The notes under the pieces are model-generated. The model made no database searches. It was not told where the DNA came from and saw only the letters and a list, made by a program, of their open reading frames with translations. A DNA stretch of 64,000 nt from an uncultured Spirochaetaceae bacterium (GTDB lineage: Bacteria > Spirochaetota > Spirochaetia > SZUA-6 > RPPD01), in NCBI GenBank assembly GCA_964634205.1, contig CAZWKE010000004.1, forward strand, positions 26,663 to 90,662, in the 5' to 3' direction. The position numbers and the translations under genes were made by a program. Positions 6,736 to 55,048 of this stretch are shown here, one piece after another (within the stretch, counting starts at the first letter, position 1; each line of letters starts with the position of its first letter).

Positions 6736-6749
6736 AATAATCGCCGTTT

Positions 6750-6782: not shown

Positions 6783-6849
6783 TGGTGGGGATCTTTTTTA
6801 TAGGGACGGCGTTTAGCCGTCCGTCATCCAAGTGCAAGGAGATGCTCAT

Positions 6850-7461: not shown

Positions 7462-7462
7462 C

Positions 7463-11888: not shown

Positions 11889-12380
11889 ATGAAGGAACTG
11901 AAGCTATTTATCAAAGATATGCAGAATGAGGCGGCCCTGCTGAAAGAGTTTGCCGAGCTTGAAGATCAGATGCAGTTGTGTGCGGGTGAGAACAGGTGGG
12001 AGGATATTGAGCGGGTGATCGGTGAGCTGAAAGGAAAGGCGGGGACATTAAACAGTATTGAGGAATGCCGCTGCGCTTCTTTTGATGCCCTGAAGAAAAA
12101 ACTGGGGTTACCTTGCGAGACCGGATTTTTAAAACTGCTGCCCATTGTACCGGTAACCGAACGGGAACGACTGCTTAGCGCGTACAGAAAACTGAAGGTA
12201 GCGGTTTTTTCGGTCAAAGGGGCAACCACGCGTCTGACCTATTATTTCAGGTCCATGGAGGGCTCGTTCAAAAAGGTCCTGGGCGAGTTGTTCCCCCACA
12301 GGAAGGGCAAGATCTATTCCAAGGACGGCAGACCCAAGAAGGTTCCCGACGACGCCCTGTTATTAAATAAGCACTTATAG
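11889..12380 (+). CDS. Putative flagellar export chaperone (FlgN-like) upstream of flgK
   Basis: 163 aa helical, acidic protein immediately 5' of flgK-flgL, which is the conserved position of FlgN. Assignment is by position and size only. Confidence 0.35.
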   Translation: MKELKLFIKDMQNEAALLKEFAELEDQMQLCAGENRWEDIERVIGELKGKAGTLNSIEECRCASFDALKKKLGLPCETGFLKLLPIVPVTERERLLSAYRKLKVAVFSVKGATTRLTYYFRSMEGSFKKVLGELFPHRKGKIYSKDGRPKKVPDDALLLNKHL

Positions 12381-12390
12381 GAGAAATATT

Positions 12391-14271
12391 ATGCTCTCGA
12401 CATTTTCCGGAATTGAAATAGGAAAGAGGGGGGTGATTGCCCATACCCAAGGTCTCATTACGGTGGGTCACAACCTGAATAATGCCGGTGTTGATGGCTA
12501 TTCGCGGCAGCGGATTGAGTTTTCTGCCGCCGATCCCATCTACCTTCCCGGTTTAAACAGGGAGCAGACCCCGGGACAGATCGGCCAGGGCATGCAGGTG
12601 GAACGCATAGAGCGTATCCGCGATATGCTTTTGGAAGGAGAAATAGTCAAGGAAACCGGGAACCAGGGGTATTGGGAGTCCCAGGATAAATATCTGAAGA
12701 TGCTTGAGCAGGTGTATAATGAGCCGACCGAGCATTCCGTCAGGGCCCTGATGGACAAGTTCTGGGAGTCGTGGCAGGAGCTTTCGGTCAACCCGTCCCA
12801 GATGGCGGCCAGGCAGGCGGTACTGGAACGGGGCCGGACCCTGCTTGACGGTATCCACCATGCCTATCAGAAATTCAGGGGAATTCGCGACATGCTTGAA
12901 GGGGACGTGGTCGGTACGGTGGACAGGGTGAATTCATTGGTGCGTGAGATTGCCGCCTTAAACGAGCAGATCCAGAAGGCGCGTGCCCTGGGAGACAACC
13001 CGAACGATATGATGGACAAACGGGACAAGAATATTGAGGAGTTGTCCAAGCTGATCGATATTACGGTCAATTACAACCAGGACCCGGACGAGTTGATTAT
13101 TTATACGAACGGCCGGCACATTGTGCAGGGCAAGCAGTTCCTGCAGTTTGCCACGCAAAAGACCGAGGCCAACGAGGGATACTCCACCGTCATCTGGAAG
13201 GACACCGGGGAGGCGGAGCAGTTCCGCGGGGGCAAACTGGCGGGATTTCTCCACCTTCGTGATGTTGAGACCAGGGGGGAGATACAAAAACTGGACCTCA
13301 TGACCATGAACTTCATCGACGCGGTCAACGCGGTACACCGCAGGGGATACGGGCTGAATGAAAAAACCGGTCTGGAGTTTTTTAAGGAGTACCCGTATGT
13401 GTTAAACGCAAACGGGAACTATGACCGAAATGGTGACGGCGCTTTTGATTCTTCTTATATCTTTCGAATGGCGGGCAAGAATACCCTTGATCCGCAGGCC
13501 CTGATCGGTATCCGCGGAACAATTACCCTCTCCGGTCCGACCGGGAACGTGACGGTGGATTATTTCCCCACCGATACGGTAAAGGACGTGGTGGCGCGCA
13601 TAAACTTGAGCGGCGCGGAAGTATCCGCGCGCCTGGACGAGGAGGGGAAACTCTCGCTCAAGGGAATGCCCGCCCAGGATACCGACAATCCTGATTTTGT
13701 CATCCGGCATGTTGAGGATTCCGGTGAGTTTCTGGCAGGCTATGCCGGCCTGCTGCAGGCACCCGGCGCGGCCGGGGCCTATAACTGGGCACAGCAGGAC
13801 GCGGTGGCCGCCCTGCGGAACGACGGGGCCACCTTTGCCGTAGCGCCCCTGGCACACCCTTCGGCCTGGATCGAGGTGAACAAGGACCTCGTGAACGAAC
13901 CGGCCTCTATTGCGGCGGCATCCGGGGTAAACGGCAGGTCCCAGGGGCCTGAAGACGGTTCGATGGCGCTGACCATCTCCGACCTGCGCTATAAAAATGT
14001 GATGATCGGCGATACACTTACCTTTGACGGGTATTTTGCCGAACTGGTGGCGTCCATCGGGTTGCGCGGCGAGCAAGCGGGAAAGGTGCTTTCAACGGAG
14101 AATCTTATCCTGAAAAATCATAAAGACCTGCGTGAATCCATTTCAGGGGTAAATATAGATGAGGAACTGACGACAATGTTGAAGTTTCAACACGGATACG
14201 CGGCCTCGGCGCGTTTTATCACCGAGTTCGATAAAATGCTTGACATTATCATTAATAGAATGGGGGTCTAA
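12391..14271 (+). CDS. flgK: Flagellar hook-associated protein 1
   Basis: 626 aa. N-terminal flagellar rod/hook family motif (…GLITVGHNLNNAGVDGYSRQRIEF…) and a conserved C-terminal helical region (…QHGYAASARFITEFDKMLDIIINRM). Confidence 0.9.
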   Translation: MLSTFSGIEIGKRGVIAHTQGLITVGHNLNNAGVDGYSRQRIEFSAADPIYLPGLNREQTPGQIGQGMQVERIERIRDMLLEGEIVKETGNQGYWESQDKYLKMLEQVYNEPTEHSVRALMDKFWESWQELSVNPSQMAARQAVLERGRTLLDGIHHAYQKFRGIRDMLEGDVVGTVDRVNSLVREIAALNEQIQKARALGDNPNDMMDKRDKNIEELSKLIDITVNYNQDPDELIIYTNGRHIVQGKQFLQFATQKTEANEGYSTVIWKDTGEAEQFRGGKLAGFLHLRDVETRGEIQKLDLMTMNFIDAVNAVHRRGYGLNEKTGLEFFKEYPYVLNANGNYDRNGDGAFDSSYIFRMAGKNTLDPQALIGIRGTITLSGPTGNVTVDYFPTDTVKDVVARINLSGAEVSARLDEEGKLSLKGMPAQDTDNPDFVIRHVEDSGEFLAGYAGLLQAPGAAGAYNWAQQDAVAALRNDGATFAVAPLAHPSAWIEVNKDLVNEPASIAAASGVNGRSQGPEDGSMALTISDLRYKNVMIGDTLTFDGYFAELVASIGLRGEQAGKVLSTENLILKNHKDLRESISGVNIDEELTTMLKFQHGYAASARFITEFDKMLDIIINRMGV

Positions 14272-17036: not shown

Positions 17037-17451
17037 GCTTCATTCCTTCTATTTGTATTATACGATCGCCGTTCTGTCGGATTCCGATCCGAATGTTTAT
17101 CGTATCAGCGGGCAGTAACGAACCCGCCTTTTCAGGCCATTCAATTACCGTTATCCCGTTACCATAGAAAAGCTCATCAAGCCCCAACTCATCAAGCTCG
17201 CTTTCGCGGTTGATGCGATAGAGGTCAACATGATGCAGCGGGGGGCTGCTTTCATACTCACTGATAAGGGTAAAGGTGGGACTGGTAACATCCTCAGCGA
17301 TACCCAGTCCCCGGGCAAGGCCTTTTACCAGGGTGGTTTTCCCGGCACCCAGCGGACCCTGCAGGGCAACCACCGCGCCCGGTGTCAGTTGTTGTACCAA
17401 CTGTCTGCCGATCTCGAGTGTTTCTGCTGTTGATGTGCTTGTCTTTGTCAT
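17017..17451 (-). CDS. tsaE: tRNA threonylcarbamoyladenosine biosynthesis ATPase TsaE (YjeE)
   Basis: 144 aa. P-loop GPLGAGKTTLVKGLARGLG plus the TsaE motif SPTFTLISEY. Overlaps tsaB by 20 nt. Confidence 0.85.
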   Translation of the reverse strand: MTKTSTSTAETLEIGRQLVQQLTPGAVVALQGPLGAGKTTLVKGLARGLGIAEDVTSPTFTLISEYESSPPLHHVDLYRINRESELDELGLDELFYGNGITVIEWPEKAGSLLPADTINIRIGIRQNGDRIIQIEGMKHEHTGD

Positions 17452-17566
17452 CAGGATAATTTTTAGAATTTATAGAAAAATGAAATCCGGGTCAATGTAT
17501 AATTGTATAATAGTAAAAATAAACTTGACAAGCAAAGTTTGGAAAAACTACAGTGTAAGAAGAAGT

Positions 17567-19243
17567 ATGAAAACAAACAATACCGCCGGCCTGGGAAAGC
17601 CGATCCCCGGTTTGGAAAGCCAATTGGCAAAGATTACCAATCGTTTAAAGACCGACCGCAAGCTGGGCGTGATTCTGATAGATATGACACCGCACTTCGA
17701 TCTTAACACGTATTATAATACCGGTATGTATCGGACCGTTACCACGGCAATAGAAAACTGTATCTGCGGCTTGCAAGGCAAAGAGATACGTCAGGATGAT
17801 GTGCTGGTTGTCAATTATACCGGGGGCAGTAAATATTATATTTTCCTAAGTAAAGCACGGGAGAAGCATTACGTTGAGATAGACGATTACGAACACCTCT
17901 GTCTGCGTATCTATTACACGATCTACAACATTCTGTTTCCGATAATGTATCCCCTAAAAGGTATGGAGCCCCAGGTCAAGATCGGATATGCATTTACTTT
18001 CTATAATCCGTTTGTGGAAGAGATGAAGTTCCTGCAGCAGTTGCTGGATGAGGCGGAAATTACGGCCGGGTACGTAGGCATGAAAATGGAAATGATGAAG
18101 AGAAAACTGCTGTACAACATCATCATGGATGAGGCGATAACAACCAGGTATCAGCCCGTCATCACCCTGGAGAAGAAAAGTATCATCGGTTATGAAGCTT
18201 TTGTCCGGGGCCCCAAAGATTCCTTTTTTGATAATGCCCACAGCCTCTTTAATTTTGCGCGTATCGCGGGGCTGGAATTTGAGCTGGACTGGGTTTGCAA
18301 GCGGTTGATCATTAAAAATGCGCGGGGGCTTGCCGCGGATAAAAAATTGTTTATCAAGATTGTACCGTGTGAGCTCTATAAACACGAAGCATTTGCCCAG
18401 CAGTTTAAATGGATTTTAGAGCAGAACCATATCTCACTCGCGAACATTGTATTTGAGGTCTGCGGACAGACTACGGCGGAGTGCCTCTCGTTTATCCGTA
18501 AACTGGGGGGAGTATATGGGGATATCCGTTACGCGCTTGTGCTGCAGGATATAATTGAAGCTGAAGAGTTGGCACTCTTACAGGAAGACGATGTAACCTA
18601 TCTCAAACTGGGGATGAATATCACCAGATGCATTGAGAGTAAACCCCTGGCAAAGGAATTTCTGGCAAAGGTGATAAAAGCAGCCGGAACCGCGAATTGT
18701 ATTGTTATTGCGGAAGGTATCCATACGCATACGGAGATGAAGGCCCTGCATGGTTTGGGTGTCGGATACGGCCAGGGATATTTCTTTGCCGGACCGGAGG
18801 CGGTATTCTTGGAAATGGTGAATATTGAAGACCATATCGGCAACAAAGAGCTTGAGCGAAATCTTCTTTCCCATATTTATTTTAAGCGCGGAAAAAGTTA
18901 TTTTAATGAAGGGGATTTTGATAAGGCGATTCTGGAGTTTACCAAGGTATTGGAAGTGGATAATAAGAATATTGACGCATTTTACCATCGCGCATTTGCC
19001 TTCTGTGAGGAAGGGGCAACCGTTGTGGCCTTACAGGATCTGCAGGCTATTCTCCGGATAAATCCCGCCTTTTCGGGAGAGCATTTTTTAAGGGGGGCAA
19101 TCCTTGAGAAAAAGGGTGATCTTGGGGCCGCACTTACCGCCTACGAACGCTATATGGAGACCATGCCCCAAGACCCGGATTTTGCGGCGGATATGGCATC
19201 GCAGCGCATCCAAAACATCCGCCGGAACATGAAAAAAACATAG
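17567..19243 (+). CDS. Degenerate GGDEF-EAL protein with C-terminal TPR repeats (likely non-catalytic c-di-GMP-related signalling protein)
   Basis: Start set at the first ATG downstream of divergent tsaE (a TTGACA/TACAGT promoter-like pair precedes it). N-terminal GGDEF-like fold with degenerate signature (…NYTGGSKYYIF…). EAL fold (YQPVITLEKKSIIGYEAFVRGP … IVIAEGIHTHTEMKALHGLGVGYGQGYFFAGP) lacks the DDFGTGYS metal-binding loop. TPR-like repeats in the last ~130 aa. Confidence 0.7.
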   Translation: MKTNNTAGLGKPIPGLESQLAKITNRLKTDRKLGVILIDMTPHFDLNTYYNTGMYRTVTTAIENCICGLQGKEIRQDDVLVVNYTGGSKYYIFLSKAREKHYVEIDDYEHLCLRIYYTIYNILFPIMYPLKGMEPQVKIGYAFTFYNPFVEEMKFLQQLLDEAEITAGYVGMKMEMMKRKLLYNIIMDEAITTRYQPVITLEKKSIIGYEAFVRGPKDSFFDNAHSLFNFARIAGLEFELDWVCKRLIIKNARGLAADKKLFIKIVPCELYKHEAFAQQFKWILEQNHISLANIVFEVCGQTTAECLSFIRKLGGVYGDIRYALVLQDIIEAEELALLQEDDVTYLKLGMNITRCIESKPLAKEFLAKVIKAAGTANCIVIAEGIHTHTEMKALHGLGVGYGQGYFFAGPEAVFLEMVNIEDHIGNKELERNLLSHIYFKRGKSYFNEGDFDKAILEFTKVLEVDNKNIDAFYHRAFAFCEEGATVVALQDLQAILRINPAFSGEHFLRGAILEKKGDLGAALTAYERYMETMPQDPDFAADMASQRIQNIRRNMKKT

Positions 19244-39668: not shown

Positions 39669-39766
39669 CAGTTCAAAATCTCCAGTTTTTCTACTAAATT
39701 TGTAACTCTGAAAAAAAACATTTTCCCTCTTGCTATTAATGTAAATTTGTATTATCTATATTTTAT

Positions 39767-39786
39767 AATGTGAATTAAATCACATT
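39767..39786 (+). promoter_or_regulatory. Rex-box-like operator (aaTGTGAAttaaaTCACAtt), with a second TGTGAA half-site at 39828-39837 overlapping the rex start
   Basis: Close match to the Rex operator consensus TTGTGAA-N4-6-TTCACAA, immediately upstream of the rex gene. TATAAT at 39764-39769 overlaps the site. Confidence 0.6.
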
Positions 39787-39831
39787 AAATCTAAGAAAGG
39801 TTTTAAACAAAAAAATTATTCTTAATTTAAT

Positions 39832-40464
39832 GTGAAATGGGGGGATATTATTAACAAAAACAGTGTGGCCCGGCTGTCACAGTATAAAAACGCCCTGATA
39901 CGCCTGAAAAATCTGGGTTTTGTGAAGGTGTTTTCGGACAACCTTGCCGATGCGCTTGACATCCGTCCAACCCAGGTACGGAAGGATTTTTCGCTGTTTC
40001 AAATATCGGGAAACAAGCGCGGCGGGTACAACATTAATGAACTGCTCGCGAGTATCCTGAAATTGTTGGGGAAAACCGAGCTGCAGAATGTCGTTTTGAT
40101 CGGTTTGGGGCATATGGGAACGGCCCTGGCGAATTACACGGGGTTTAAAAAAGAGGGCATCCGGGTATATGCCTGTTTTGATATTGATCCGGCCAAGCAC
40201 AATGAAGCGGCCGCCCCCCCGGTATACCCGATGGAGCGGCTGCGGGAGATTGTGAAAAAGGGAGATATTAAAATCGCGATTATCGCTGTCCCGGATATCG
40301 CCGCACAGCATGTGGCGGATTTGCTGGTTGCTGCTGACATTAAAGGGGTGCTGAATTTCACCTCCATTCAGCTGCGAACGCCCGCGGACGTCCCGGTGCG
40401 TACGGTAAATCTCGTGCATGAGCTTGAGAATTTGTTTTATTTTGTGCATACGGAGGAGGAGTAG
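39832..40464 (+). CDS. rex: Redox-sensing transcriptional repressor Rex
   Basis: GTG start. N-terminal winged helix (…ARLSQYKNALIRLKNLGF…), Rossmann NADH-binding GLGHMGTAL, C-terminal …IKGVLNFT…. Confidence 0.85.
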   Translation: MKWGDIINKNSVARLSQYKNALIRLKNLGFVKVFSDNLADALDIRPTQVRKDFSLFQISGNKRGGYNINELLASILKLLGKTELQNVVLIGLGHMGTALANYTGFKKEGIRVYACFDIDPAKHNEAAAPPVYPMERLREIVKKGDIKIAIIAVPDIAAQHVADLLVAADIKGVLNFTSIQLRTPADVPVRTVNLVHELENLFYFVHTEEE

Positions 40465-40472
40465 AGAGAACA

Positions 40473-42332
40473 TTGAAAATACTGAAGATTCGCAGCTTGC
40501 GTGCAAGGCTTTTTATTTCATTTGTAATAATAATCATTATTATCAGCGGGGCCAGCTGCGGTCTGATATTTTATCTTGTGCAACACGATATAATCCTCCG
40601 GTCACAGGAACAGGCCAGGACCTATCTTGAAACGGTGGATCAGTTTTTCAGGGATGAGATCAATAAACTGCGCACGGTTTTTTTGATGTTGAAACTTCCT
40701 GTTGATACCCCGGAATTGAAACAAAATCTGGGTCTGGACTATTTTTTTGTCAAAACGGATGAGACATACAGCCCGAGTCCTTTTGTCAGGCTGGCAATGG
40801 CCGGTACCCCGGCCGGTGGATTCCGGATTATGAAAAGGGACGAGTTGTTGAGTTACGGAGAGGGGCTTTTACGTAAATCAGCCATTGAAATAAAGGATCC
40901 GCCGGGCGGGGATACGGCGGCACAAACAAAACTGGAATCCGCTATGGTGCTGGAATACGCGGTTCCGCTTCCCGGTGGTAAACCGCACCAAAGGAAGGTT
41001 CTGTACGGCGGGTATATCATCAACAGGGATTTTTCACTTATCGACCAATTGCATAAACTGGTCTTTGAAAACAAACTTTATGATGGAAAGCCGATCGGTA
41101 CCATAACGGTGTTTCTTCATGATATCCGGATTGCCACCAATGTGCTGACCGACAGCGGCCGGCGGGCAATCGGTACAAGGGTCTCCGGGGTGGTAAACGA
41201 CACCGTCCTGGTGAAAGGACAGACATGGATAGACAGGGCGTTTGTGGTGACCGACTGGTATCGTACGGCATACAAGCCCATAAAGGACTATAACGGCAAT
41301 ACTATCGGAATCCTTTATGTGGGCATTCTGGAAAGACCGTTCGTGGATATGATCATCCGGGTGTACGCGTTCGCGCTTGTAATTTTTGCCGGGGTAATCG
41401 GGATCGGTATGGTCCTTACCATTGTATTGTCCAGAATGATTTTTAAACCGCTTAAGGCAATGCTCGACGCCACAAGCGGAATCGCCAGGGGTGATTATAC
41501 CGAGACGGTCAGGCTCCATTCACCTATGAAGGAGTTTGATGTTTTTAATTCAGCGTTCAAGCGTATGGCCCGTGAACTGAACAAGCGGGAGCAGCGTCTG
41601 AAGTTTTCCGGAGAGAAACTGGTTTCATTAAACAAGAGTTACCTTGACCTGATTGGGTTTGTTTCCCATGAGCTTAAGGGGATTCTTGCTTCAACCATCT
41701 TGAATGCCTATACGGTACGGGACGGATTTTTGGGGATGGTAAATTTCAAACAACGCCGGGCCCTGGATTCCATCACCAGGAACCTGGACTACCTGGCGGA
41801 GACGGTAAAGAATTTTCTCAGCCTGAGTAGAATTGAAAAAGGCGAGCTTATTTTTCAGAAAACCGAGTGCCGTCTGAAAGAGGATGTTTTTGATCCGGTG
41901 GTTGAAACATATGAGAAGGCGGCTGCGGAAAAAGGCATTCATTTTGTCAACGGGATCACCCCCGAAACAGCGCTGTGCTCGGACCGCGACCTGCTGTTTA
42001 TTGTGGTCAATAACCTCATCGGGAACGCGGTTAAATACGGTCGTGACAACGGGACGATTATGCTTTCCTCGTATGAAACAAACGGGAAGATTACCGCTGA
42101 AATATTCAACGAAGGTGACCCGCTGTCGCCGGATGATATCGGGCGCTTGTTCGGCAAGTTCATCCGCCTGGAATCGGCCCGGAAGCGTCATATTAAAGGC
42201 ACGGGTCTGGGGCTTTTTATCACCAAGGAGATCGTGGAAAAACATGGTGGAAAAATCTGGTGTGAAAGCAGGGAAAACGGAAATTCATTTATTTTTACAT
42301 TGGAAAGGGGGGAGTATGCTCACTCCGCTTGA
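40473..42332 (+). CDS. Sensor histidine kinase with large extracytoplasmic (Cache-like) domain, HAMP, HisKA, HATPase_c
   Basis: 619 aa. TM1 at residues ~13-35, a ~250 aa periplasmic region, TM2 ~292-318, HAMP, H-box FVSHELKGILAS, N box NLIGNAVKYG, G box GTGLGLFITKEIVEKHGG. Confidence 0.85.
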   Translation: MKILKIRSLRARLFISFVIIIIIISGASCGLIFYLVQHDIILRSQEQARTYLETVDQFFRDEINKLRTVFLMLKLPVDTPELKQNLGLDYFFVKTDETYSPSPFVRLAMAGTPAGGFRIMKRDELLSYGEGLLRKSAIEIKDPPGGDTAAQTKLESAMVLEYAVPLPGGKPHQRKVLYGGYIINRDFSLIDQLHKLVFENKLYDGKPIGTITVFLHDIRIATNVLTDSGRRAIGTRVSGVVNDTVLVKGQTWIDRAFVVTDWYRTAYKPIKDYNGNTIGILYVGILERPFVDMIIRVYAFALVIFAGVIGIGMVLTIVLSRMIFKPLKAMLDATSGIARGDYTETVRLHSPMKEFDVFNSAFKRMARELNKREQRLKFSGEKLVSLNKSYLDLIGFVSHELKGILASTILNAYTVRDGFLGMVNFKQRRALDSITRNLDYLAETVKNFLSLSRIEKGELIFQKTECRLKEDVFDPVVETYEKAAAEKGIHFVNGITPETALCSDRDLLFIVVNNLIGNAVKYGRDNGTIMLSSYETNGKITAEIFNEGDPLSPDDIGRLFGKFIRLESARKRHIKGTGLGLFITKEIVEKHGGKIWCESRENGNSFIFTLERGEYAHSA

Positions 42333-42672
42333 ACAAATCAAAAAAATGCGGGCTTTGGCCATCAACCGCATCATCGGCAGCGGGTACCTGTCTACGAAGC
42401 GCGTTTATGTGGGTATGGCAACCTGTGAAATCGCCGCCGGTTCCAAGGAGGTGATGCAGGTGTTTCAAGAGGCAAAAAAGCAGGGGCTGGCTGATGTGTA
42501 CGTCAGTCAAAAAGGCTGCGCGGGCAGGTGCAACCTGGAGCCGACCGTGGAAATTGTGGAAGAAGGCAAGATCCCGGTCAAGTATGGTCTGATCGACAAA
42601 GAAAAGGCGCAGCAGATTATTGAGCGTCATCTTAAAAAAGGAGAAGTGATTACAGAATGGCTGATCAAGTAG
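42316..42672 (+). CDS. Small thioredoxin-like ferredoxin-fold protein (HndB-like hydrogenase subunit)
   Basis: 118 aa from an internal ATG overlapping the histidine-kinase stop. Cys residues at MATC…KGCAGRC. Position and size match HndB of Hnd-type [FeFe] hydrogenases. Confidence 0.6.
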   Translation: MLTPLEQIKKMRALAINRIIGSGYLSTKRVYVGMATCEIAAGSKEVMQVFQEAKKQGLADVYVSQKGCAGRCNLEPTVEIVEEGKIPVKYGLIDKEKAQQIIERHLKKGEVITEWLIK

Positions 42673-44483
42673 AAACTCGGACAATTAAAAACAGTACCGC
42701 GCAATACAATGTTATCCTCTGTTCCGGTCCCAGCTGCCTGCACCGGAAATCCAAAGAACTGCTGCAGGCGGTCAGGCGTGAGCTGGTACGTCACGGGTTG
42801 GAGCGGAAAACCGAGGTAATCCTTTCGGGCTGCCTGGGAATGTGTAAAAAGGGCCCGATAATGATTATCAATCCCGGGTATACGATTTACGGGGGAATCC
42901 ATGAGGAGCATATCGCGGAGATCATCGAGGCGCACCTGGTAAAGAACAACCCGGTGAGTGAAAAAATAATTAATGAGGACCATCTGTTTAATCGGTTCTA
43001 TCGCATTTTCGGTGATGTGGCGTTCTTCGGCAAGCAGATGCGCATCGCACTACGGAACTGCGGTATTCTCGATCCTGAAAAGATCGACGATTATCTTTCG
43101 GTAAGGGGGTATGAGGCGCTGGCCAAGGTGCTGACCTCTTATACACCGGGTCAGGTAATAGAGGAAATCGGAATCTCCGGTCTTAGGGGCCGGGGCGGCG
43201 CCGGATTCCCCACGGGATTAAAGTGGAAGCTGACCGCCGAAACCGACTCCGCTGAAAAATATGTAATCTGCAACGCCGACGAGGGGGACCCCGGCGCGTT
43301 TATGGACCGGAGTGCCATTGAAGGCGATCCGCATACGGTACTGGAAGGGATGCTTATCGGCGGATACGCGGTGGGGGCCGTAAAGGGCTTTATCTATATC
43401 CGGGCGGAGTATCCGCTTGCCATTCGCCGGCTGGAAAAGGCGATCGCCGAGGCGCGCAAGCATAATCTGCTGGGCAAAAACATCCTGGGAAGTGACTTCA
43501 GTTTTGATATTGAAATCCGTCTGGGTGCCGGTGCCTTTGTGTGCGGTGAGGAAACCGCGCTCATCCAATCGATTGAGGGCGGACGCGGAATGCCGCGACC
43601 ACGGCCCCCGTACCCGTCGGTAAGCGGGGTGTTCGGCAAGCCCACTTTAATCAATAATGTCGAGACCTGGGCCAATATTCCGGTGATCGTGCTCGACGGC
43701 GCGGACTGGTTTGCTTCCATCGGTACCGAAAAAAGTAAAGGTACCAAGGTGTTTGCCCTGGCCGGGAACGTGGTCAACACCGGGCTGATAGAGGTTCCCA
43801 TGGGGACAACCCTGCGGGAGATAATATTCGATATCGGCGGCGGTATCCCCGACGGAAAGAAGTTTAAAGCCGTACAGACCGGCGGGCCTTCAGGGGGGTG
43901 TCTGACCGAGGATTACCTGGATACACAAATCGATTATGATTCTTTGGCCAAGGCCGGTTCGATCATGGGCTCTGGTGGAATGATTGTCATGGATGAAGGC
44001 ACCTGCATGGTGAATGTCGCCAAGTTTTTCCTTGAGTTCACCCAAAACGAGTCCTGCGGAAAATGTACGCCGTGCCGTGAAGGAACCAAACGCATGCTGG
44101 AGATACTGACCCGTATCACCGCGGGAAAGGGCAGGCAGGGGGATATCGAACAACTGGAGCGCCTGGGAAATATGATACGCAAGGCCTCACTGTGCGGTTT
44201 GGGGCAGTCTGCGCCCAATCCGGTCTTAAGCACCATAAAAAACTTCAGGCATGAATATGAAGAGCATATCAACCGGAAGCACTGCCGGGCCACGGTTTGT
44301 CCGGCCATGGTGGTCTACGGTATTACCGATGACTGTATCGGCTGCGGCGCTTGTGTGCGCGTCTGTCCGGTCGGCGCTGTTTCCGGAATAAAAAAGAACA
44401 AACATACCATCGATCAGGAAGCATGCATTAAATGCGGAGAATGCTACTCGACCTGCCGCTTTAAGGCAATTACCCGTACTTAG
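42657..44483 (+). CDS. NADH-binding flavoprotein subunit of multimeric [FeFe] hydrogenase (NuoF-like; HndC/HydB type)
   Basis: 608 aa. N-terminal Trx-like 2Fe-2S (CSGPSC…GCLGMC). NuoF core (GRGGAGFPTGLKW; FMN and NAD(H) glycine-rich loops). Two C-terminal 4Fe-4S ferredoxin motifs (CIGCGACVRVCP, CIKCGECYSTC). Confidence 0.9.
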   Translation: MADQVETRTIKNSTAQYNVILCSGPSCLHRKSKELLQAVRRELVRHGLERKTEVILSGCLGMCKKGPIMIINPGYTIYGGIHEEHIAEIIEAHLVKNNPVSEKIINEDHLFNRFYRIFGDVAFFGKQMRIALRNCGILDPEKIDDYLSVRGYEALAKVLTSYTPGQVIEEIGISGLRGRGGAGFPTGLKWKLTAETDSAEKYVICNADEGDPGAFMDRSAIEGDPHTVLEGMLIGGYAVGAVKGFIYIRAEYPLAIRRLEKAIAEARKHNLLGKNILGSDFSFDIEIRLGAGAFVCGEETALIQSIEGGRGMPRPRPPYPSVSGVFGKPTLINNVETWANIPVIVLDGADWFASIGTEKSKGTKVFALAGNVVNTGLIEVPMGTTLREIIFDIGGGIPDGKKFKAVQTGGPSGGCLTEDYLDTQIDYDSLAKAGSIMGSGGMIVMDEGTCMVNVAKFFLEFTQNESCGKCTPCREGTKRMLEILTRITAGKGRQGDIEQLERLGNMIRKASLCGLGQSAPNPVLSTIKNFRHEYEEHINRKHCRATVCPAMVVYGITDDCIGCGACVRVCPVGAVSGIKKNKHTIDQEACIKCGECYSTCRFKAITRT

Positions 44484-44491
44484 GAGAGAAT

Positions 44492-46279
44492 ATGAAAGCA
44501 AAAAAAATGATTTCCATCTATATTAACGATGTCCAATACAAGGTGGCAGACGGCCAGACCATAATGCAGGCCGCGGACGCGCTTGGTTTTAAAATCCCAC
44601 GGCTCTGCTATCACCCCAAACTTTCGATCGAAGGCGCGTGTCGTGTATGTATCGTACAGGTGGAGGGCCAAAAAAATTATACGGCCTCCTGCTCCTTCCC
44701 GGTCTTTGAAAATATGCGGGTGCATACCAATACCAAGGAGCTTCGCCGTGCCCGCCGGGACATCGTTGAGCTGATCCTGGACAATCATCCCCGGGACTGT
44801 CATACCTGTGAGCGGGACGGTGTCTGTGAATTGCAGCGCCTGGCCTACGCCATGGGCATAAGAAACCGCCATTTCGAAGGAGAGCGCAAACACTATGAAA
44901 AGGACCTGTCCTCTCCGTCGGTTATCCGCGACCCGGATAAATGCATTCTGTGCGGAAGATGCGTGCGCCTCTGCTCGGAAATACAGAAGGTAAATGCGTT
45001 GGGGTATGCGCACCGCGGTTTTAAAACAGTGGTTATGCCCGCGTTTAACAAGCCCTTTTCCGAGAGTGTCTGTACCACCTGCGGTCAATGCATTAATGTC
45101 TGTCCCACGGCCTCTTTTGTGGAAAAGAATAATACGCAGGAACTCTTTGAAAAACTTGACGACCCGTCTTTGACAAAGATCGTACAGGTAGCGCCGTCCG
45201 TACGGGCCGCCATTGGTGAGGCCTTCGGCCTTGAGGCGGGAAAGGCGATGCACAAAGAGCTGGTGTCCGCCTTGAAAAAATTGGGATTCGATTATATCTT
45301 CGATACGCAGTTTGCCGCGGACCTGACCATTATGGAGGAGGCCAGTGAGCTGCTTGATCGTATACAGGGAAACGGCCGCCTGCCCATGATTACCTCATGT
45401 TCGAGCGCCTGGATAAAGTACCTGGAGCACTTCTATCCGCAGTTCCTCCCCAACCTGTCAACCTGTAAGTCGCCCATGTCCATGCTCGGGGCCCTGATAA
45501 AAAGCTATTTTGCCAAGAAGTTGGGATGTGATCCTTCTAGGCTGCTGAGTGTGGCGGTTATGTGCTGTACGGCAAAAAAGCATGAGGCAAACCGGCCGGA
45601 ACTGGCCGTGGAAGGGCTGCCCGCGGTTGATATGGTGGTCACCACCAGGGAGATCGCCTGGATGATCAAGTCTGCCGGCATCGATATGATAAGTGCCAAA
45701 GGCAGTGATTTTGACGCCCCATTAGGGCTCTCCTCGGGCGCGGGGGCGATCTTCGGGGCTACCGGAGGAGTAATGGAAGCGGCCATCAGGACCGCATATG
45801 AGCTTTATACCGGTGAGACGCTGCTTGACATCGAGCTGCAGTCCCTGCGCGGTTTTTCCGGGATAAAGGAAGCGTGTTTTACCATGGAAGACAAGGAGAT
45901 CCGTGTGGCGGTGGCCCACGGCCTGGGAAACGCGGGGAAACTGATGGAGATCATAAAAAAAGAACCCGACCGTTACCATTTTGTGGAGGTAATGGGCTGC
46001 CCGGGCGGTTGTATCGGCGGCGGCGGTCAACCCTATGCCACGGCCAATTCCATTCCATTGGATGAAGATTTCTTAAAAAAACGTGCCGAAGCCTTGTACG
46101 GCATCGACAGGGATAAAACCATCCGCAGAAGCCATGAGAACCCCGACGTGCAGCGGTTGTACAAGGAGTTTTTGGGAAGGCCCTTAAGTACGGTGTCGCA
46201 CGGCTTACTGCATACGTCATACAGTAAAAAACAGCCACAAGGTATTATTGCCGGGGGAGGAAATAATGAACAGCAATGA
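44492..46279 (+). CDS. hydA: [FeFe]-hydrogenase large subunit (HydA/HndD type, M3 architecture) with atypical H-cluster motifs
   Basis: 595 aa. Plant-type 2Fe-2S, a His-ligated 4Fe-4S (HPRDCHTCERDGVC), two 4Fe-4S ferredoxin motifs, then the H-domain. L3 is canonical (EVMGCPGGCIGGGGQP). L1 reads TSCSSAW (expected TSCCPxW) and L2 reads MCCTAKKHE (expected MPCxxKxxE). Confidence 0.85.
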   Translation: MKAKKMISIYINDVQYKVADGQTIMQAADALGFKIPRLCYHPKLSIEGACRVCIVQVEGQKNYTASCSFPVFENMRVHTNTKELRRARRDIVELILDNHPRDCHTCERDGVCELQRLAYAMGIRNRHFEGERKHYEKDLSSPSVIRDPDKCILCGRCVRLCSEIQKVNALGYAHRGFKTVVMPAFNKPFSESVCTTCGQCINVCPTASFVEKNNTQELFEKLDDPSLTKIVQVAPSVRAAIGEAFGLEAGKAMHKELVSALKKLGFDYIFDTQFAADLTIMEEASELLDRIQGNGRLPMITSCSSAWIKYLEHFYPQFLPNLSTCKSPMSMLGALIKSYFAKKLGCDPSRLLSVAVMCCTAKKHEANRPELAVEGLPAVDMVVTTREIAWMIKSAGIDMISAKGSDFDAPLGLSSGAGAIFGATGGVMEAAIRTAYELYTGETLLDIELQSLRGFSGIKEACFTMEDKEIRVAVAHGLGNAGKLMEIIKKEPDRYHFVEVMGCPGGCIGGGGQPYATANSIPLDEDFLKKRAEALYGIDRDKTIRRSHENPDVQRLYKEFLGRPLSTVSHGLLHTSYSKKQPQGIIAGGGNNEQQ

Positions 46280-46790
46280 TGATATCAAATTACAGCAGTT
46301 GAAAGAGTACATGCAGGGTTTTACCAAAGACCCACATGCGCAGTCAAATCTGATTACCGTATTGCACCGGGCCCAGGAACTTTACGGCTATCTGAAACAG
46401 GAGGTCATGGAAGAGATCGCGTATAGTCTTGCGGTCCCGACCGCCAAGATCTGGGGGGTGGCCAGTTTTTACCATTACTTTAACCTGTCACCGGTGGGTC
46501 GTCATGTTATTTCCGTCTGCATGGGCACCGCGTGTTATGTCAAAGGAGCGGGGCTTTTATTGGAACGGGTACGGCAGAAACTCAACATCGATGTCGGCGC
46601 GACCTCCGCAGACGGGCTTTTTACCCTGCAGGAAGCGCGTTGCCTGGGTGCCTGTGGACTGGCACCGGTGGTGATGATTGACGATCGTATTTACGGCAAA
46701 CTTTCAGCCGAAGGGGTTGCCGCGGTTCTGGATTCGTATGCAAACCGGTATAAAAATAATAAACAACAATCAGTAGTAAGGAGTAAATAG
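46266..46790 (+). CDS. NuoE-like 2Fe-2S subunit of [FeFe] hydrogenase (HndA/HydC type)
   Basis: Start at MNSNDD with a GGAGG RBS. Trx-like 2Fe-2S motifs CMGTACYVKG and CLGACGLAPV. Confidence 0.85.
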   Translation: MNSNDDIKLQQLKEYMQGFTKDPHAQSNLITVLHRAQELYGYLKQEVMEEIAYSLAVPTAKIWGVASFYHYFNLSPVGRHVISVCMGTACYVKGAGLLLERVRQKLNIDVGATSADGLFTLQEARCLGACGLAPVVMIDDRIYGKLSAEGVAAVLDSYANRYKNNKQQSVVRSK

Positions 46791-46796
46791 CTTAGT

Positions 46797-47192
46797 ATGG
46801 AAAAGAAAATACTAATAATCGACGATGATCCTGATTTTGCCGAGGCAATCATTACATTACTGGAAGCAAACGGTTATTCGGTGGTATACGCGGATAACGG
46901 AAGATCGGGCTTTGAACAGGCAAAAAGCAATCAGCCGGGGCTGATTCTGCTTGATGTCATGATGAGTGAGAAGACCGAAGGGTTTGACATCTCGCGAAAA
47001 CTGGCGGAGGAAAAGATTACTGCCGTAATCCCGGTAGTGCTGGTTACCGGAATCAGGAAGGAAATGAACCTTCCGTATACCCTTGAACCGGATAACGAAT
47101 GGCTGCCGGTAAAGGCGGTAATTGAAAAACCTGTAAAACCTACTGAGCTTTTGCGGGTGGTACAGGAACATATCGTGGTGGGAGAAAAGTAG
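46797..47192 (+). CDS. Stand-alone CheY-like response-regulator receiver protein
   Basis: 131 aa. ILIIDDD, phospho-Asp context LILLDVMM, conserved T (VVLVTG) and K (EKPVKP). No output domain. Confidence 0.85.
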   Translation: MEKKILIIDDDPDFAEAIITLLEANGYSVVYADNGRSGFEQAKSNQPGLILLDVMMSEKTEGFDISRKLAEEKITAVIPVVLVTGIRKEMNLPYTLEPDNEWLPVKAVIEKPVKPTELLRVVQEHIVVGEK

Positions 47193-47223: not shown

Positions 47224-48852
47224 TTATCCCGATCTTGCGGGATTCTCTTCATCAAGGAGTTCGCGCAGTTGTTCTTTCTCTATGTGGGGGCGGATAATCG
47301 TAAAGTTTTTCATAATGCCGGTAAATGTCTGCATATTCTTAAAGGAATCAAGCAGGTTGCCGCTAAACTCCTGATTTCTGTCCCCACCGATCACTTTAAT
47401 ATTACTGATAAGAAGCGGAGAATGCTGTTTGGCATCGTTTATAATCTCTGCAATGACCCCCTGAAATGAATAAAAGATATTGGTATAATCCTCTATTATT
47501 TTCATTGCCATGTTGTTGATGGTTTCGATTAGTTTATTCAGTGAATAGCCTACGGATTTTCCGCTTTTATAATCAACCAGGTATTTTCTAATTTTACTGA
47601 TACTTACCTCGCCGGGGGTGGTGAGGGTGTGTTCGAATTGAGAAATAGCTTCACGCGTTCCCTGGCATGAATGGAACAGGCGTATAAAACGCTCTTTAAA
47701 CTCCTTCTGCTCAAAAAAACCGTTTATCACTATTTTTTTTATAGTCTCCTGTATCTTTTTTTCAAAATGAAGCACGGTAAAACTCTTTACGATACTGAGG
47801 GGTTTAATATGATTAAAGGAATTGAACGACTCAGTCTGCAGCATTTTTGCCAGTTCATCTTCATATCCGTCGATTTCCAGTAGTTCCTTGCCGCTGAAAA
47901 GCTGATTTAAATCAGACAGGATTTCACGCTCGCTGCATTCACGTGTTACCTTCTCCACATCCATCTGGTAGCGTGATGAGAGCTTGCTTTTATAGACATC
48001 AAGAAATGTTTTATCGGCTTTATCGGTTTTGATGGTAAGGGCGGGATCCGCATTAATGGCCCGCAGTAACGCAAGCACAATATCGGGAGAGAGATAGGTT
48101 TTAAAAATGTTGTCCATAGAGGTTACAAGTTTGTTTATTTTTACCGCATCATTGGAGCTGATTTTCTTTTTCAGTCTTTTCAGCAGGAAGACCAGGTTTT
48201 TTTCTATACCGAGACTGAGGTTCAGATCGGCAAATACAAAATATAAATCCATGAGTTCCTGGTTTGCATGGTGTCCGATGCAGGCTGAAAAATTCGGTTT
48301 GTAACTGTTAGAGATTGTGACGTCCGGGTCAAAAAACATCAGCAGGCGGATAAAGTCATGCCGGCAAAGTGCGACAAACCGTTCCAGGGAACCGAATTCC
48401 GCATCGAAGTTGGCGAACTCGCTGCCGGAAAAGAGTTTCTGAAATTCGATAAACTCTTCATTCAGGATTTCGGTCTCGGTTTTCAGGGAAGCCGAATTAT
48501 ACAGGCGTTCCCTGATTTTATCATAACTGAAGTTTTGTTTTTGTAATTGTGTTTCTTCTTCCAGCCGTACTTCAATCAGGTAATCCTTGTACATTTCGGA
48601 AAGCCTGTCGTTCTCATTTAAGATTGTTTTATAGATCAGTTCCTTAAGGGGACGCAGATACTGTAAAAAGCTGAATAATGTGCGGGCGAACTGGGGCAAC
48701 AACTGCCCGGTAGATTGTTTGTAGAATATAAGTTTGTGCTGTTTGATAAGCTTATAAATTTGTTTTAAATCCCTTTTTCTATTATATTCCCGGCTGTTTC
48801 CCGCCAATAGTAATGAAAAGAACTCTTTAATGCGTTTAAGGATTTTAATCAT
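47224..48852 (-). CDS. Large hypothetical protein (542 aa), no recognisable domains, low GC
   Basis: Long uninterrupted ORF with protein-like composition and no antisense competitor. GC ~38-40% versus ~50-60% in neighbours. Confidence 0.5.
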   Translation of the reverse strand: MIKILKRIKEFFSLLLAGNSREYNRKRDLKQIYKLIKQHKLIFYKQSTGQLLPQFARTLFSFLQYLRPLKELIYKTILNENDRLSEMYKDYLIEVRLEEETQLQKQNFSYDKIRERLYNSASLKTETEILNEEFIEFQKLFSGSEFANFDAEFGSLERFVALCRHDFIRLLMFFDPDVTISNSYKPNFSACIGHHANQELMDLYFVFADLNLSLGIEKNLVFLLKRLKKKISSNDAVKINKLVTSMDNIFKTYLSPDIVLALLRAINADPALTIKTDKADKTFLDVYKSKLSSRYQMDVEKVTRECSEREILSDLNQLFSGKELLEIDGYEDELAKMLQTESFNSFNHIKPLSIVKSFTVLHFEKKIQETIKKIVINGFFEQKEFKERFIRLFHSCQGTREAISQFEHTLTTPGEVSISKIRKYLVDYKSGKSVGYSLNKLIETINNMAMKIIEDYTNIFYSFQGVIAEIINDAKQHSPLLISNIKVIGGDRNQEFSGNLLDSFKNMQTFTGIMKNFTIIRPHIEKEQLRELLDEENPARSG

Positions 48853-53900: not shown

Positions 53901-54968
53901 ATGATTGTTAAAGGAAAACACTATAAGACGGTATGGCTTGAGGGAACTACCGTCTATATTATTAATCAGCCCCTCCTGCCGCATAAATTTGAAATAATGG
54001 AATGTCCCGATCACCAGCGGACCGCCCGGGCGATTTCAAATATGGTTATCCGCGGGGCGGGGGCCATCGGCTCGGCGGCCGGGTACGGGCTGGCCCAGGC
54101 GGTATTGGAAGCTCCTGAAAATGATTTTGATGCCTACATCGAAACTGCTTTCGCGAACATAAAAAATACCCGCCCCACCGCCCAGAATTTATTTTACAGT
54201 ATCGAAAGAGTGTATCGGAAAGTAAAGGAAGCGGCCGATCCGCAACAGGCCAGAATTGCGGCGGTAAAAGAGGCTGAAGCCATTGCCCTGGAAGATATAA
54301 ATGCCTGTAAGCGAATCGGGGAGATAGGCGCGGAGCTTATTCGCGACGATGCAAAAATACTTACCCACTGCAATGCGGGGTGGCTGGCGTTTACCGATTG
54401 GGGAACCGCCCTCTCACCGATATATGTGGCGAAAAGGGCGAACAAAAAACTGTTTGTCTGGGTGGATGAAACACGTCCCCGTTTCCAGGGTGCCCGGCTG
54501 ACCGCGTGGGAGTTGAAAGAAGAAGGCGTCCCGTTTGCCGTTATTGCCGATAATGCGGCGGGTTTTTACATGCAAAGGGGTGAGGTGGACATGGTAATTG
54601 TGGGAAGCGATCGGATTGCCAAAAACGGTGATGTGGCCAATAAGATCGGCACTTATGAAAAGGCGGTTATGGCCCGGGAGAACAACATCCCCTTTTATGT
54701 GGCCGCACCAACCGCCACCATCGATTGGCACTGCGGTCATGGAGATGATATTCCCATCGAAGAAAGGAGCCAGGACGAGGTAACCTCCATTACCGGGCGG
54801 GATGAGGTAAACAGTCTGCATAGTGTTACCATCATTCCGGAAGGCGCCATCGCCAGAAATCCTGCTTTTGATGTAACTCCGGCAAAATATATTACGGGTA
54901 TCATAACCGAAAGAGGTATTGTAAAACCGCAGGAGCTTGAGAAATTAAAGACGTATGCCGAGGTGTGA
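53901..54968 (+). CDS. mtnA: S-methyl-5-thioribose-1-phosphate isomerase (eIF-2B alpha/beta/delta family)
   Basis: 355 aa. …RGAGAIGSAAGYG…, …HCNAGWLA…, …ARLTAWEL… and …VIVGSDRIAKNGDVANKIGTY… match the MtnA/eIF2B family. Confidence 0.75.
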   Translation: MIVKGKHYKTVWLEGTTVYIINQPLLPHKFEIMECPDHQRTARAISNMVIRGAGAIGSAAGYGLAQAVLEAPENDFDAYIETAFANIKNTRPTAQNLFYSIERVYRKVKEAADPQQARIAAVKEAEAIALEDINACKRIGEIGAELIRDDAKILTHCNAGWLAFTDWGTALSPIYVAKRANKKLFVWVDETRPRFQGARLTAWELKEEGVPFAVIADNAAGFYMQRGEVDMVIVGSDRIAKNGDVANKIGTYEKAVMARENNIPFYVAAPTATIDWHCGHGDDIPIEERSQDEVTSITGRDEVNSLHSVTIIPEGAIARNPAFDVTPAKYITGIITERGIVKPQELEKLKTYAEV

Positions 54969-55048
54969 TTTTCTTCACGGATAGACAACCTCCGAACCGC
55001 CATCGGGAAGTGAGTGCGGCGTTTAAATTTTTTGTTTGATTTGGATAT

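Follow-up and report, generated by a model that had tools for sequence, protein, structure and literature searches.

The genes of a multimeric [FeFe]-hydrogenase in an uncultured Spirochaetaceae bacterium are bracketed by a sensor histidine kinase gene on one side and the gene of a stand-alone receiver on the other, with a gene for the redox repressor Rex at the head, which raises the question of whether the hydrogenase is the source of a signal, the target of a signal or simply a neighbor of both regulators. The block lies in a stretch of 64,000 nt (contig CAZWKE010000004.1, positions 26,663 to 90,662; hereafter the window). Comparison across genomes supports the kinase and the output-less receiver as a conserved pair tied to the hydrogenase. 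The reading favored here, with a probability of roughly 0.5, is that Rex would provide a transcription layer and that a formate-responsive kinase and its receiver would act on the enzyme via HydC. The functional claims rest on sequence, synteny, one predicted structure and published homologues.

An alignment of kinase homologues was scanned against one genome per species, and relatives were found in 286 species; the best 80 of the 286 species loci were fetched with 10-kb flanks, and the proteins of the window were placed on them by tblastn. The kinase family is 43-73% identical over its full length. The 80 loci are labeled Omnitrophota, Planctomycetota (mostly Phycisphaerae and relatives), Spirochaetota, Bacillota, Synergistia, Fibrobacterota, Elusimicrobia, Raymondbacteria, Auribacterota and Vulcanimicrobiota, about ten phylum-level labels in all, which are the unverified names given by the depositors of the metagenome-assembled genomes (MAGs). 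Rex is encoded directly 5′ of the kinase in 67 of 75 loci and farther upstream in five more, a NuoF-like gene lies at most 1.5 kb 3′ of the kinase gene in 64 of 65, HydA is encoded 3′ of the kinase in 52 of 53, and a receiver of at least 50% identity is found within 10 kb downstream in 41 of 44. The kinase and receiver genes are directly adjacent in one locus (L038), and the pair is kept in two loci where Rex is not adjacent (L040 and L080). The proposal of a first-pass annotation of the window that the kinase and receiver belong with the hydrogenase is borne out by the downstream receivers and by the adjacency in L038. That annotation had also named an outcome that would speak against it, namely that the same gene order would prove widespread as an ordinary bifurcating hydrogenase operon with unrelated flanking regulators; the order is indeed widespread, but the flanking regulators are co-conserved rather than unrelated.

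The mean pairwise identity across the loci is 76-79% for the HndB-like protein, HydB and HydA, 62% for Rex, 65% for the receiver and 54% for the kinase, and the seven proteins have correlated distance matrices (r = 0.56-0.88), a correlation that may partly mirror shared phylogeny. Clustering of all flanking open reading frames (ORFs) reveals that the only other conserved neighbors are the hydrogenase maturases HydG/HydE, seen in 39 loci, and HydF, seen in 20. The locus of Ca. Velamenicoccus archaeovorus reads rex-HK-hndB-hydB-hydA-hydC-hydG-hydE-RR-hydF (HK, histidine kinase; RR, receiver), and in L003 hydF is placed between rex and the kinase gene. No maturase genes were found in the 64-kb window, and the nearest relative of the window (L001, an uncultured Spirochaetaceae MAG with 73-90% identity) has the receiver and no maturase genes nearby. 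Sequences identical to the window receiver occur on metagenome contigs of the Joint Genome Institute (JGI) and in a cluster of MAGs labeled ‘Spirochaetia bacterium’, and no record of the exact window kinase sequence was found in the assembly index. The block is a self-contained hydrogenase module, which is probably horizontally mobile.

Variants of the module are present in L033 (12416-15556) and L044 (3378-6581), as well as in L020, L030, L050, L069 and L080. These consist of the kinase, NuoE and a NuoF of approximately 1050 aa that carries a GltD/NfnB-like pyridine-nucleotide oxidoreductase as a fusion, followed by HydA and the receiver; their HydA proteins are 48-55% identical to that of the window and carry TSCSPGW as the L1 motif, and the arrangement suggests that the wrapper here surrounds a hydrogenase linked to NADPH. 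In L013, L017, L020, L022, L044 and L087, the regulated module has another multimeric [FeFe]-hydrogenase cluster directly beside it, with its own receiver in L013 and L087 and, in L087, also a Rex-like gene. The wrapper of Rex, kinase and receiver accompanies at least three predicted hydrogenase subtypes, which argues that the target of the receiver should be a part that they share, namely NuoE, NuoF or HydA.

The receiver contains the residues D9, D10 and D11, the phospho-acceptor D53, T84 and K111-P112, and these are conserved across 48 orthologues. Between β4 and β5 lies a family-specific segment, NLPYTLEPDNEWLPV in the window, whose consensus NLPYxxEPDxxWLPV is strongly conserved. No output domain is detected in the receiver by Pfam, and no specific NCBIfam model passed. 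The kinase carries an H-box histidine, His399, in the motif SHELKG, followed by HATPase_c, which together with the acidic pocket, Asp, Thr and Lys of the receiver completes the classical features of a two-component pair. Cognate phosphotransfer from the kinase to the receiver is predicted from their co-occurrence in 41 of 44 loci, from the adjacency of the two genes in L038 and from the position of the kinase immediately upstream of the fusions described below. In Phycisphaerae, an OmpR-family DNA-binding regulator is encoded approximately 600 bp 3′ of the receiver (L021, 19938-20624; the same position in L027, L028, L049, L065, L068, L070 and L075), and in L084 a PAS-LuxR (GerE) regulator (1992-2834) lies directly 5′ of rex.

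In four loci (L084-L087), a single polypeptide combines an N-terminal receiver with a C-terminal NuoE-like domain. The fused receivers are 44-54% identical to the window receiver, the family-specific segment included, and the NuoE-like domains are 45-55% identical to the window HydC; the orthologous kinase gene lies immediately 5′ of the fusion gene in L084, L085 and L087, the three loci with readable upstream sequence. The L084 fusion, on a contig of 3.36 Mb with the order Rex-HK-[REC::NuoE]-HydB-HydA-RR-HydE-like (REC, receiver domain), comprises 293 aa, with a receiver 50% identical over 126 residues and a C-terminal domain 49% identical to the window HydC. A second fusion (P0392), obtained from a scan of 1.8 billion representatives, is 56% identical to that of L084, and its locus reads HK(C-terminal fragment)-[REC::NuoE]-HndB-like-HydB-HydA; L086 and L087 were obtained from a metagenome scan, and L087 reads HK-[REC::NuoE]-HndB-like-HydB-HydA-HydF-HydG. 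The recurrent fusion of the receiver to a NuoE-like subunit, of the ‘Rosetta stone’ type, speaks for a connection of the receiver with HydC, whether physical or functional, and the receiver probably acts on the enzyme. In the known structures of HydABC, HydC is located next to the flavin of HydB, the presumed site of bifurcation. The first-pass annotation had the signal flow from hydrogenase and NADH status through the phosphorelay to motility or gene regulation; the fusion of the receiver family to a NuoE-like subunit favors the opposite direction, from an external ligand via kinase and receiver to the hydrogenase.

The input of the proposed pathway is the sensor of the kinase. Pfam detects sCache_3_3, HisKA and HATPase_c in the kinase, and no NCBIfam model scored above its cut-off; the linker is a HAMP domain in relatives. 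Two hydrophobic segments (approximately residues 10-36 and 297-322, by hydropathy) flank a sensor of approximately 260 aa, which places the sensor outside the cytoplasm, and the earlier description of a kinase with an extracytoplasmic sensor directly 5′ of the hydrogenase genes therefore agrees with both the hydropathy and the Pfam results. An AlphaFold2 (AF2) model of residues 37-296, computed with 54 homologues, has a predicted local distance difference test (pLDDT) score of 89.9 and predicts a long N-terminal helix, an extra α/β module and a complete Cache module just before the second transmembrane segment (TM2). The extra module is far less conserved than the Cache module. A Foldseek search of this model against the PDB returns as top matches the formate-bound sCache structures 8PY0 and 8PY1 (E = 3e-7 to 5e-6), the sensor domains of chemoreceptors from Oscillibacter ruminantium and Asticcacaulis benevestitus, which are also the only significant PDB sequence matches in phmmer (E = 9.5e-5 and 5.8e-4).

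In the formate site described previously, an essential Arg forms a salt bridge (PacF R142, R6 R111), and Thr residues (PacF T145 and T158; R6 T100, R3 T105), a hydrogen-bonding Tyr (R6 Y160) and a pocket-floor Phe that excludes larger acids (R6 F175, R3 F182) complete the pocket (PMC11804620). Isothermal titration calorimetry and crystallography have demonstrated formate binding for sCache_3_3 domains with these residues (PMC11804620; PMC11844446), and most domains of this kind are predicted to bind formate (PMC11844446). In the window kinase, R219 aligns with the formate-site Arg of 8PY0 as well as that of 8PY1, T222 and T235 lie at +3 and +16 from this Arg just as PacF T145 and T158 do, and Y267 aligns with R6 Y160; all four residues are invariant in the kinase family. 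The balance of the sequence comparison tips slightly toward formate as the ligand of the kinase.

The first layer of control is suggested by the gene at the head of the block. Its product scores 228.7 bits against the Rex equivalog model NF003996 of NCBIfam (cut-off 138) and contains the nucleotide-binding loop GLGHMG, and it is a predicted redox-sensing (NADH/NAD+) transcriptional repressor. The region 5′ of rex is 163 nt long and carries the palindrome TGTGAATTAAATCACA directly after TATAAT, a perfect site of the operator class TGTGA-N6-TCACA at the rex promoter, to which binding of Rex is predicted. In the survey, a Rex box with at most one mismatch was found within 300 nt 5′ of rex in 51 of 72 loci. 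The earlier statement that Rex heads the operon holds for the window and for most loci, but the plural ‘Rex boxes’ does not, as the second ‘box’ near the start codon is a half-site only. A search of the whole window with the Rex-box pattern yields the perfect match and one other site, TGTGATTTTCTTCACG, with one mismatch, at the 3′ end of an IF-2B/MtnA-family gene and approximately 500 nt upstream of a periplasmic-binding-protein gene; this site is statistically unremarkable, as at least two Rex-box matches occur in 37 of 100 shuffles.

According to the ORF coordinates, the seven genes (39832-47192) all lie on the + strand with junctions of +8, -17, -16, +8, -14 and +6 nt, the last being the spacing between hydC and the receiver gene. 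The claim of seven co-directional genes with overlaps or gaps of 10 nt or less is correct in that the largest gap is 8 nt. A consensus scan of the block revealed no convincing internal promoter or terminator, the counts being close to those in shuffled sequence, which makes the block compatible with a single transcript and is not proof of one. An Rfam scan of the window gave no match. The features of the block, together with further features of the window mentioned in the text, are listed in Table 1.

Table 1. Coordinates of the hydrogenase gene block and of other features in the window.
Feature	Position	Strand	Description
G+C-rich stretch	6001-12000		
FtsX-like permease gene	8744-11440		898 aa
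FlgK gene	12391-14271		
EAL-TPR protein gene	17276-19243		c-di-GMP phosphodiesterase-like
TATAAT hexamer	39764-39769	+	abuts the Rex-type operator
Rex-type operator	39769-39784	+	TGTGAATTAAATCACA; perfect; 48 nt 5′ of the rex start
rex	39832-40464	+	210 aa, GTG start; Put_DNA-bind_N and CoA_binding (Pfam)
Sensor histidine kinase (HK)	40473-42332	+	619 aa; TM1, periplasmic sensor, TM2, linker, HisKA, HATPase_c
HK periplasmic sensor	40581-41360	+	residues 37-296; AF2 model, Foldseek, phmmer
Extra α/β module of the sensor	40701-41018		approximately residues 79-182, ~100 aa
sCache_3_3 module	41019-41354		
Codon of HK His399	41667-41669		
hndB/hydD-like	42316-42672	+	118 aa; overlaps the kinase stop by 17 nt
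hydB/hndC	42657-44483	+	608 aa; NuoF-like flavoprotein (Pfam)
hydA/hndD	44492-46279	+	595 aa; predicted catalytic [FeFe]-hydrogenase subunit (Pfam, NCBIfam)
HydA L1	45392-45412	+	TSCSSAW; variant motif
HydA L2	45560-45586	+	MCCTAKKHE; variant motif
HydA L3	45986-46033	+	EVMGCPGGCIGGGGQP; canonical
hydC/hndA	46266-46790	+	174 aa; NuoE-like [2Fe-2S]; alternative TTG at 46248 gives 180 aa
Stand-alone receiver (RR)	46797-47192	+	131 aa; Pfam Response_reg only
Codon of receiver D53	46953-46955		
DUF5312 gene	47224-48852	-	542 aa; convergent; ends 31 nt past the receiver stop
Second Rex-box-like site	54964-54979		TGTGATTTTCTTCACG

The enzyme between the two regulators has the full subunit set of a multimeric hydrogenase. 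HydA contains the Pfam domains Fer2_4, NuoG-type 4Fe-4S, Fe_hyd_lg_C and Fe_hyd_SSU and reaches 831.9 bits against NCBIfam NF040763, ‘NADH-dependent [FeFe] hydrogenase, group A6’ (cut-off 765), and its best solved relatives are the catalytic HydA1 subunits of the electron-bifurcating complexes of Thermoanaerobacter kivui (3e-179) and Acetobacterium woodii (9e-166). HydB (Complex1_51K, NADH_4Fe-4S, two Fer4 and an N-terminal 2Fe-2S domain in Pfam) comprises the FMN/NADH site, the NuoF 4Fe-4S site and a C-terminal 2x[4Fe-4S] region, and its best solved relative is A. woodii HydB (7q4v_B, E = 4.5e-243), with an alignment that runs from end to end. HydC matches Pfam 2Fe-2S_thioredx (3e-49), with NfnC, T. 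kivui HydC (3.9e-38) and A. woodii HydC as solved relatives, and its ATG start agrees with the gene call on the identical metagenome contigs. The HndB-like protein has no Pfam hit; it has a thioredoxin-like ferredoxin fold with three conserved cysteines (C37, C68 and C72), and its homology to the N-terminal domain of NfnB/HoxF and to the [2Fe-2S] ferredoxin 1F37 identifies it as an HndB/HydD-type subunit. It is the most conserved gene of the module, with a mean pairwise identity of 79%.

The modified H-cluster motifs pointed out in the first-pass annotation are real, as L1 reads TSCSSAW and L2 reads MCCTAKKHE with a normal L3, but they do not indicate a sensory hydrogenase. The proton-relay Cys, which is the first in L1, is retained. 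The HydABC of A. woodii has Ser301 in place of the cluster ligand, is active and gives a normal Fourier-transform infrared (FTIR) signature (PMC10021017), and the same Cys-to-Ser change in L1 has been noted for Thermoanaerobacter tengcongensis and Ignavibacterium album (PMC3362086) and for Melainabacteria (PMC3787301). Of the 53 HydA sequences with TSCSSAW, all 52 with the L2 region present have MCC, and the remaining one ends before L2; the relatives with TSCSPGW and TSCCPSW all keep MPC in L2, as does the L057 HydA, which is 72% identical and combines TSCSPGW with MPC. The extra L2 Cys, which adjoins the ligand Cys, is absent from all solved structures compared, and it may provide the [4Fe-4S]H subcluster with an alternative fourth ligand. 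The Cys-to-Ser change in L1 is already known; the linked Pro-to-Cys change in L2 appears to be undescribed in the searchable open-access literature. A sensory identity of HydA (HydS; HydDB groups C/D) was considered and rejected, since PAS is absent, the C-terminus is Fe_hyd_SSU, the first Cys of L1 is kept and the best solved relatives are catalytic. The lack of PAS, the score above the A6 cut-off, the full HydB and HydC partners and, in other phyla, the accompanying HydE/F/G maturases indicate that HydA is, as predicted from sequence, a catalytic HydABC/Hnd-type enzyme (‘A6’; group A3) and not a sensor, and the window enzyme, given its homology to characterized complexes, presumably performs flavin-based bifurcation or confurcation with NAD(H) and ferredoxin.

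Taken together, these results are consistent with the following model. The enzyme would consist of HndB-like, HydB, HydA and HydC subunits, through which a fermenter would dispose of reducing equivalents as H2. Rex would sit on the operator beside the -10 hexamer of its own gene and be released when NADH/NAD+ rises, so that the whole block, kinase and receiver included, would be made when the cell is over-reduced. The membrane kinase would read a small periplasmic ligand, predicted to be formate, via its sCache_3_3 pocket, autophosphorylate on His399 and pass the phosphate to Asp53 of the output-less receiver, which would not bind DNA and would instead dock on the hydrogenase, most likely on or next to HydC beside the flavin, and change the activity or the direction of the enzyme. 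The internal redox state would then set the amount of enzyme, and external formate, an alternative electron carrier to H2, would set how the enzyme runs. The Rex layer is proposed because of the sequence evidence and the established knowledge of Rex, and we infer both the signaling layer and the gating by the receiver at HydC beside the flavin. The most specific form of the model, in which the phosphorylated receiver on HydC gates or reverses a HydABC-type electron flow in response to periplasmic formate, is tentative and has the odds against it.

Several observations weigh against this model. Regarding the ligand, the identity between the sensor and the solved formate sensors is modest (26% over approximately 120 columns), and formate-type Cache domains occur almost only in chemoreceptors (PMC11804620). 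Four of the six diagnostic formate positions match; at the position of R6 F175, the pocket-floor Phe is replaced conservatively by an invariant Tyr (Y282), and the region of R6 T100, a hydrogen-bonding Thr on the first strand, lies outside the phmmer alignment, with the invariant T210 and T212 on the corresponding strand as candidates. The presence of the extra module in the sensor counts in the same direction, and the clustering of flanking ORFs revealed no formate dehydrogenase (FDH), pyruvate formate-lyase (PFL) or FocA as conserved neighbors of the module. Regarding the target, the HydA proteins of the fusion loci show 45-46% identity and the canonical TSCCPSW/MPC motifs and represent a different subtype, and the fusion evidence comes from this sister subtype of the module, not from the subtype of the window. 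A fusion indicates functional linkage and is not proof that the free receiver binds the same site; L084 encodes a stand-alone receiver in addition to the fusion, and maturase genes separate hydC from the receiver gene in many loci. Additionally, the OmpR-type regulator could be a real, lineage-specific output in Phycisphaerae.

Among the alternatives to the two-layer model, the one that survives best is that the receiver is a transcriptional connector, which would modulate Rex (e.g., as an anti-repressor) or an unlinked DNA-binding regulator and would alter the amount of enzyme. Single-domain receivers that act via protein partners are known, as in Spo0F, DivK and CpdR; Rex is the sole DNA-binding protein of the block and is co-conserved with the kinase/receiver pair, the distance matrices of the receiver and Rex correlate best (r = 0.86), and several Phycisphaerae loci have an OmpR-type regulator after the receiver. 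However, neither an Hpt protein nor a DNA-binding regulator is conserved in the module, the only fusion partner found for the receiver family within the module is the NuoE-like subunit and not Rex, and the pair persists in L040 and L080 where Rex is not adjacent, which leaves this alternative doubtful.

A second alternative is that the receiver controls H-cluster maturation via HydE, HydF or HydG. The receiver gene lies between hydE and hydF in Omnitrophota and after hydE in Phycisphaerae, and the L084 receiver precedes the HydE-like radical-SAM gene, but the window and L001 have the receiver with no maturases nearby (in the window, none within the 64 kb), and the fusion observed is with NuoE and not with a maturase, so that control of maturation is improbable. 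A role as a CheY-like messenger that carries hydrogenase or redox information to the flagellar motor (energy or metabolite taxis) or to distant genes is at least as improbable: the receiver lacks an output domain and is labeled ‘CheY-like chemotaxis protein’ by the sources, the organism has flagellar genes such as that of FlgK, and chemoreceptors are the typical setting of formate-type Cache domains; but the module has no che genes among its conserved neighbors, ‘CheY-like’ is a generic automatic label, and a metabolic partner is suggested both by the family-specific segment and by the fusions with NuoE.

That HydA is a HydS-like sensor whose altered H-cluster reports H2 to the kinase is very improbable, since the deviation of L1 and L2 from the canonical TSCCPxW and MPCxxKxxE is outweighed by the missing PAS, the retained proton-relay Cys, the A6 score and the complete HydB and HydC, by the same Ser substitution in the active HydA of A. 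woodii, by the location of the kinase sensor in the periplasm and of HydA in the cytoplasm, and by the presence of the same wrapper around HydA with fully canonical motifs. Finally, regulators often adjoin operons by chance in a single genome, but the idea that kinase and receiver are unrelated neighbors of an ordinary bifurcating hydrogenase operon is scarcely credible and is effectively refuted by the co-occurrences (64/65, 52/53 and 41/44) over about ten phylum-level labels, together with the L038 adjacency and the receiver-NuoE fusions.

Other features of the window lie outside the block. The DUF5312 gene that converges on the receiver gene is present on the JGI contigs identical to the window as well. 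The G+C content of the stretch that holds the FtsX-like permease gene is 0.57-0.65, compared with approximately 0.48 elsewhere, and this stretch may be of foreign origin or hold a gene set of distinct composition. The flagellar hook-associated protein FlgK and the EAL-TPR protein, which resembles a cyclic di-GMP (c-di-GMP) phosphodiesterase, show an organism that is putatively motile and uses c-di-GMP signaling.

Each component of the module belongs to a known family, namely HydABC/Hnd-A6 hydrogenase, Rex, HisKA kinase, receiver and sCache_3_3 domain. What appears to be undescribed in the searchable open-access literature is the combination of a periplasmic formate-type Cache kinase and an output-less receiver with Rex and maturases in the operon of a catalytic multimeric [FeFe]-hydrogenase, together with its cross-phylum conservation and the natural receiver-NuoE fusions. 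In that literature, no description was found of a Cache kinase and receiver around HydABC, of a formate-type Cache kinase or of a receiver-NuoE fusion, in line with the first-pass annotation, which named no known case of a histidine kinase/CheY-like pair around a hydrogenase with modified H-cluster motifs. A kinase is a new context for a formate-type Cache domain. In fermenters, syntrophs and acetogens, the H2 balance is determined by multimeric NADH/ferredoxin-linked [FeFe]-hydrogenases, and apart from Rex and, in a few Firmicutes, the HydS/phosphatase systems, little is understood of how these enzymes are regulated. The module is a conserved cross-phylum wrapper for such enzymes, abundant in lineages such as Omnitrophota, anaerobic Planctomycetota and Spirochaetota, for which metagenomes are the main source of knowledge. 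Should the kinase sense formate, the module would connect H2 with formate, the two principal carriers of electrons between species. Phosphorylation-dependent control of an electron-bifurcating complex is rare, and an action of the receiver on HydC would be a case of it and would offer a handle for switching such enzymes in biotechnology. The output of a two-component system would then be a redox enzyme and not a gene, and many uncultured anaerobic phyla would share a portable, ligand-switched H2 valve.

A comparison with known enzymes places the hydrogenase with HydABC of A. woodii, T. kivui and Thermotoga maritima and with the tetrameric HydABCD, the NADH-dependent enzyme of Caldanaerobacter (Thermoanaerobacter) tengcongensis, and Hnd of Desulfovibrio fructosovorans, which have the same subunit set and domain architecture as the window enzyme, from the N-terminal F-clusters of HydA and the extra Fe-S domains of the NuoF-like HydB to the NuoE-like HydC and the small HndB/HydD-like protein. 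The E-values of the window proteins against solved HydABC-type subunits are 1e-34 to 1e-243, and the Cys-to-Ser change in L1 is common to the window HydA, A. woodii and T. tengcongensis. The differences are the gene order, B-C-D-A in the window compared with hndABCD or hydC..hydBA in known systems, the MCC in L2, and the inclusion of a full Cache kinase and a receiver in the operon. Firmicute hydrogenase operons are not known to encode more than a small HATPase-only protein before the hndB-like gene.

Rex control of hydrogenase operons is known, and Ravcheev et al. (2012) reportedly described a Rex regulon of Clostridia and Thermotogae that includes fermentation and hydrogenase operons. The known Rex-regulated hydrogenase operons likewise combine a Rex equivalog with a TGTGA-N6-TCACA operator that overlaps the promoter; unlike in these regulons, rex itself opens the hydrogenase operon here and is conserved together with the kinase/receiver pair.

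For the sensor, the closest systems in fold and sequence are the formate sensors PacF (dCache), the sCache_3_3 domains 8PY0 and 8PY1, and Atu0526, with which the kinase shares the Arg, the two Thr and the Tyr at identical spacing. It differs from them in its histidine kinase output, in the Tyr floor of the pocket and in the extra module of approximately 100 aa before the Cache module, and its formate binding is a prediction. The best solved relatives of the kinase core and the receiver are HK853 and RR468 of T. maritima, of which RR468 is likewise stand-alone; this likeness is a generic family likeness only (E = 1e-12 to 1e-18), the sensor differs, and to our knowledge the HK853 and RR468 genes are not linked to a hydrogenase.

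The logic of the proposed control resembles that of FhlA, the formate-responsive activator of the formate hydrogenlyase of Escherichia coli, which is a cytoplasmic sigma-54 activator that binds formate and controls the [NiFe] enzyme Hyc. In both cases, the level of formate would govern an H2-evolving enzyme, and FhlA has no homology to the kinase or the receiver described here. Signaling proteins that tune H2 metabolism are likewise encoded with hydrogenases in the HydS, PP2C and Ser/Thr kinase systems of Ruminococcus albus and of the hfs locus of Thermoanaerobacterium saccharolyticum, in the ‘histidine kinase-linked’ sensory [FeFe]-hydrogenases of HydDB group C1, and in the [NiFe] systems HupUV/HoxBC-HoxJ-HoxA. 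In the HydS, C1 and HupUV systems, a hydrogenase-like protein is the sensor and transcription is the output, whereas in the module described here a periplasmic Cache domain does the sensing, the hydrogenase is predicted to be catalytic, and the receiver, which lacks a DNA-binding domain, is in some loci fused to a subunit of the enzyme.

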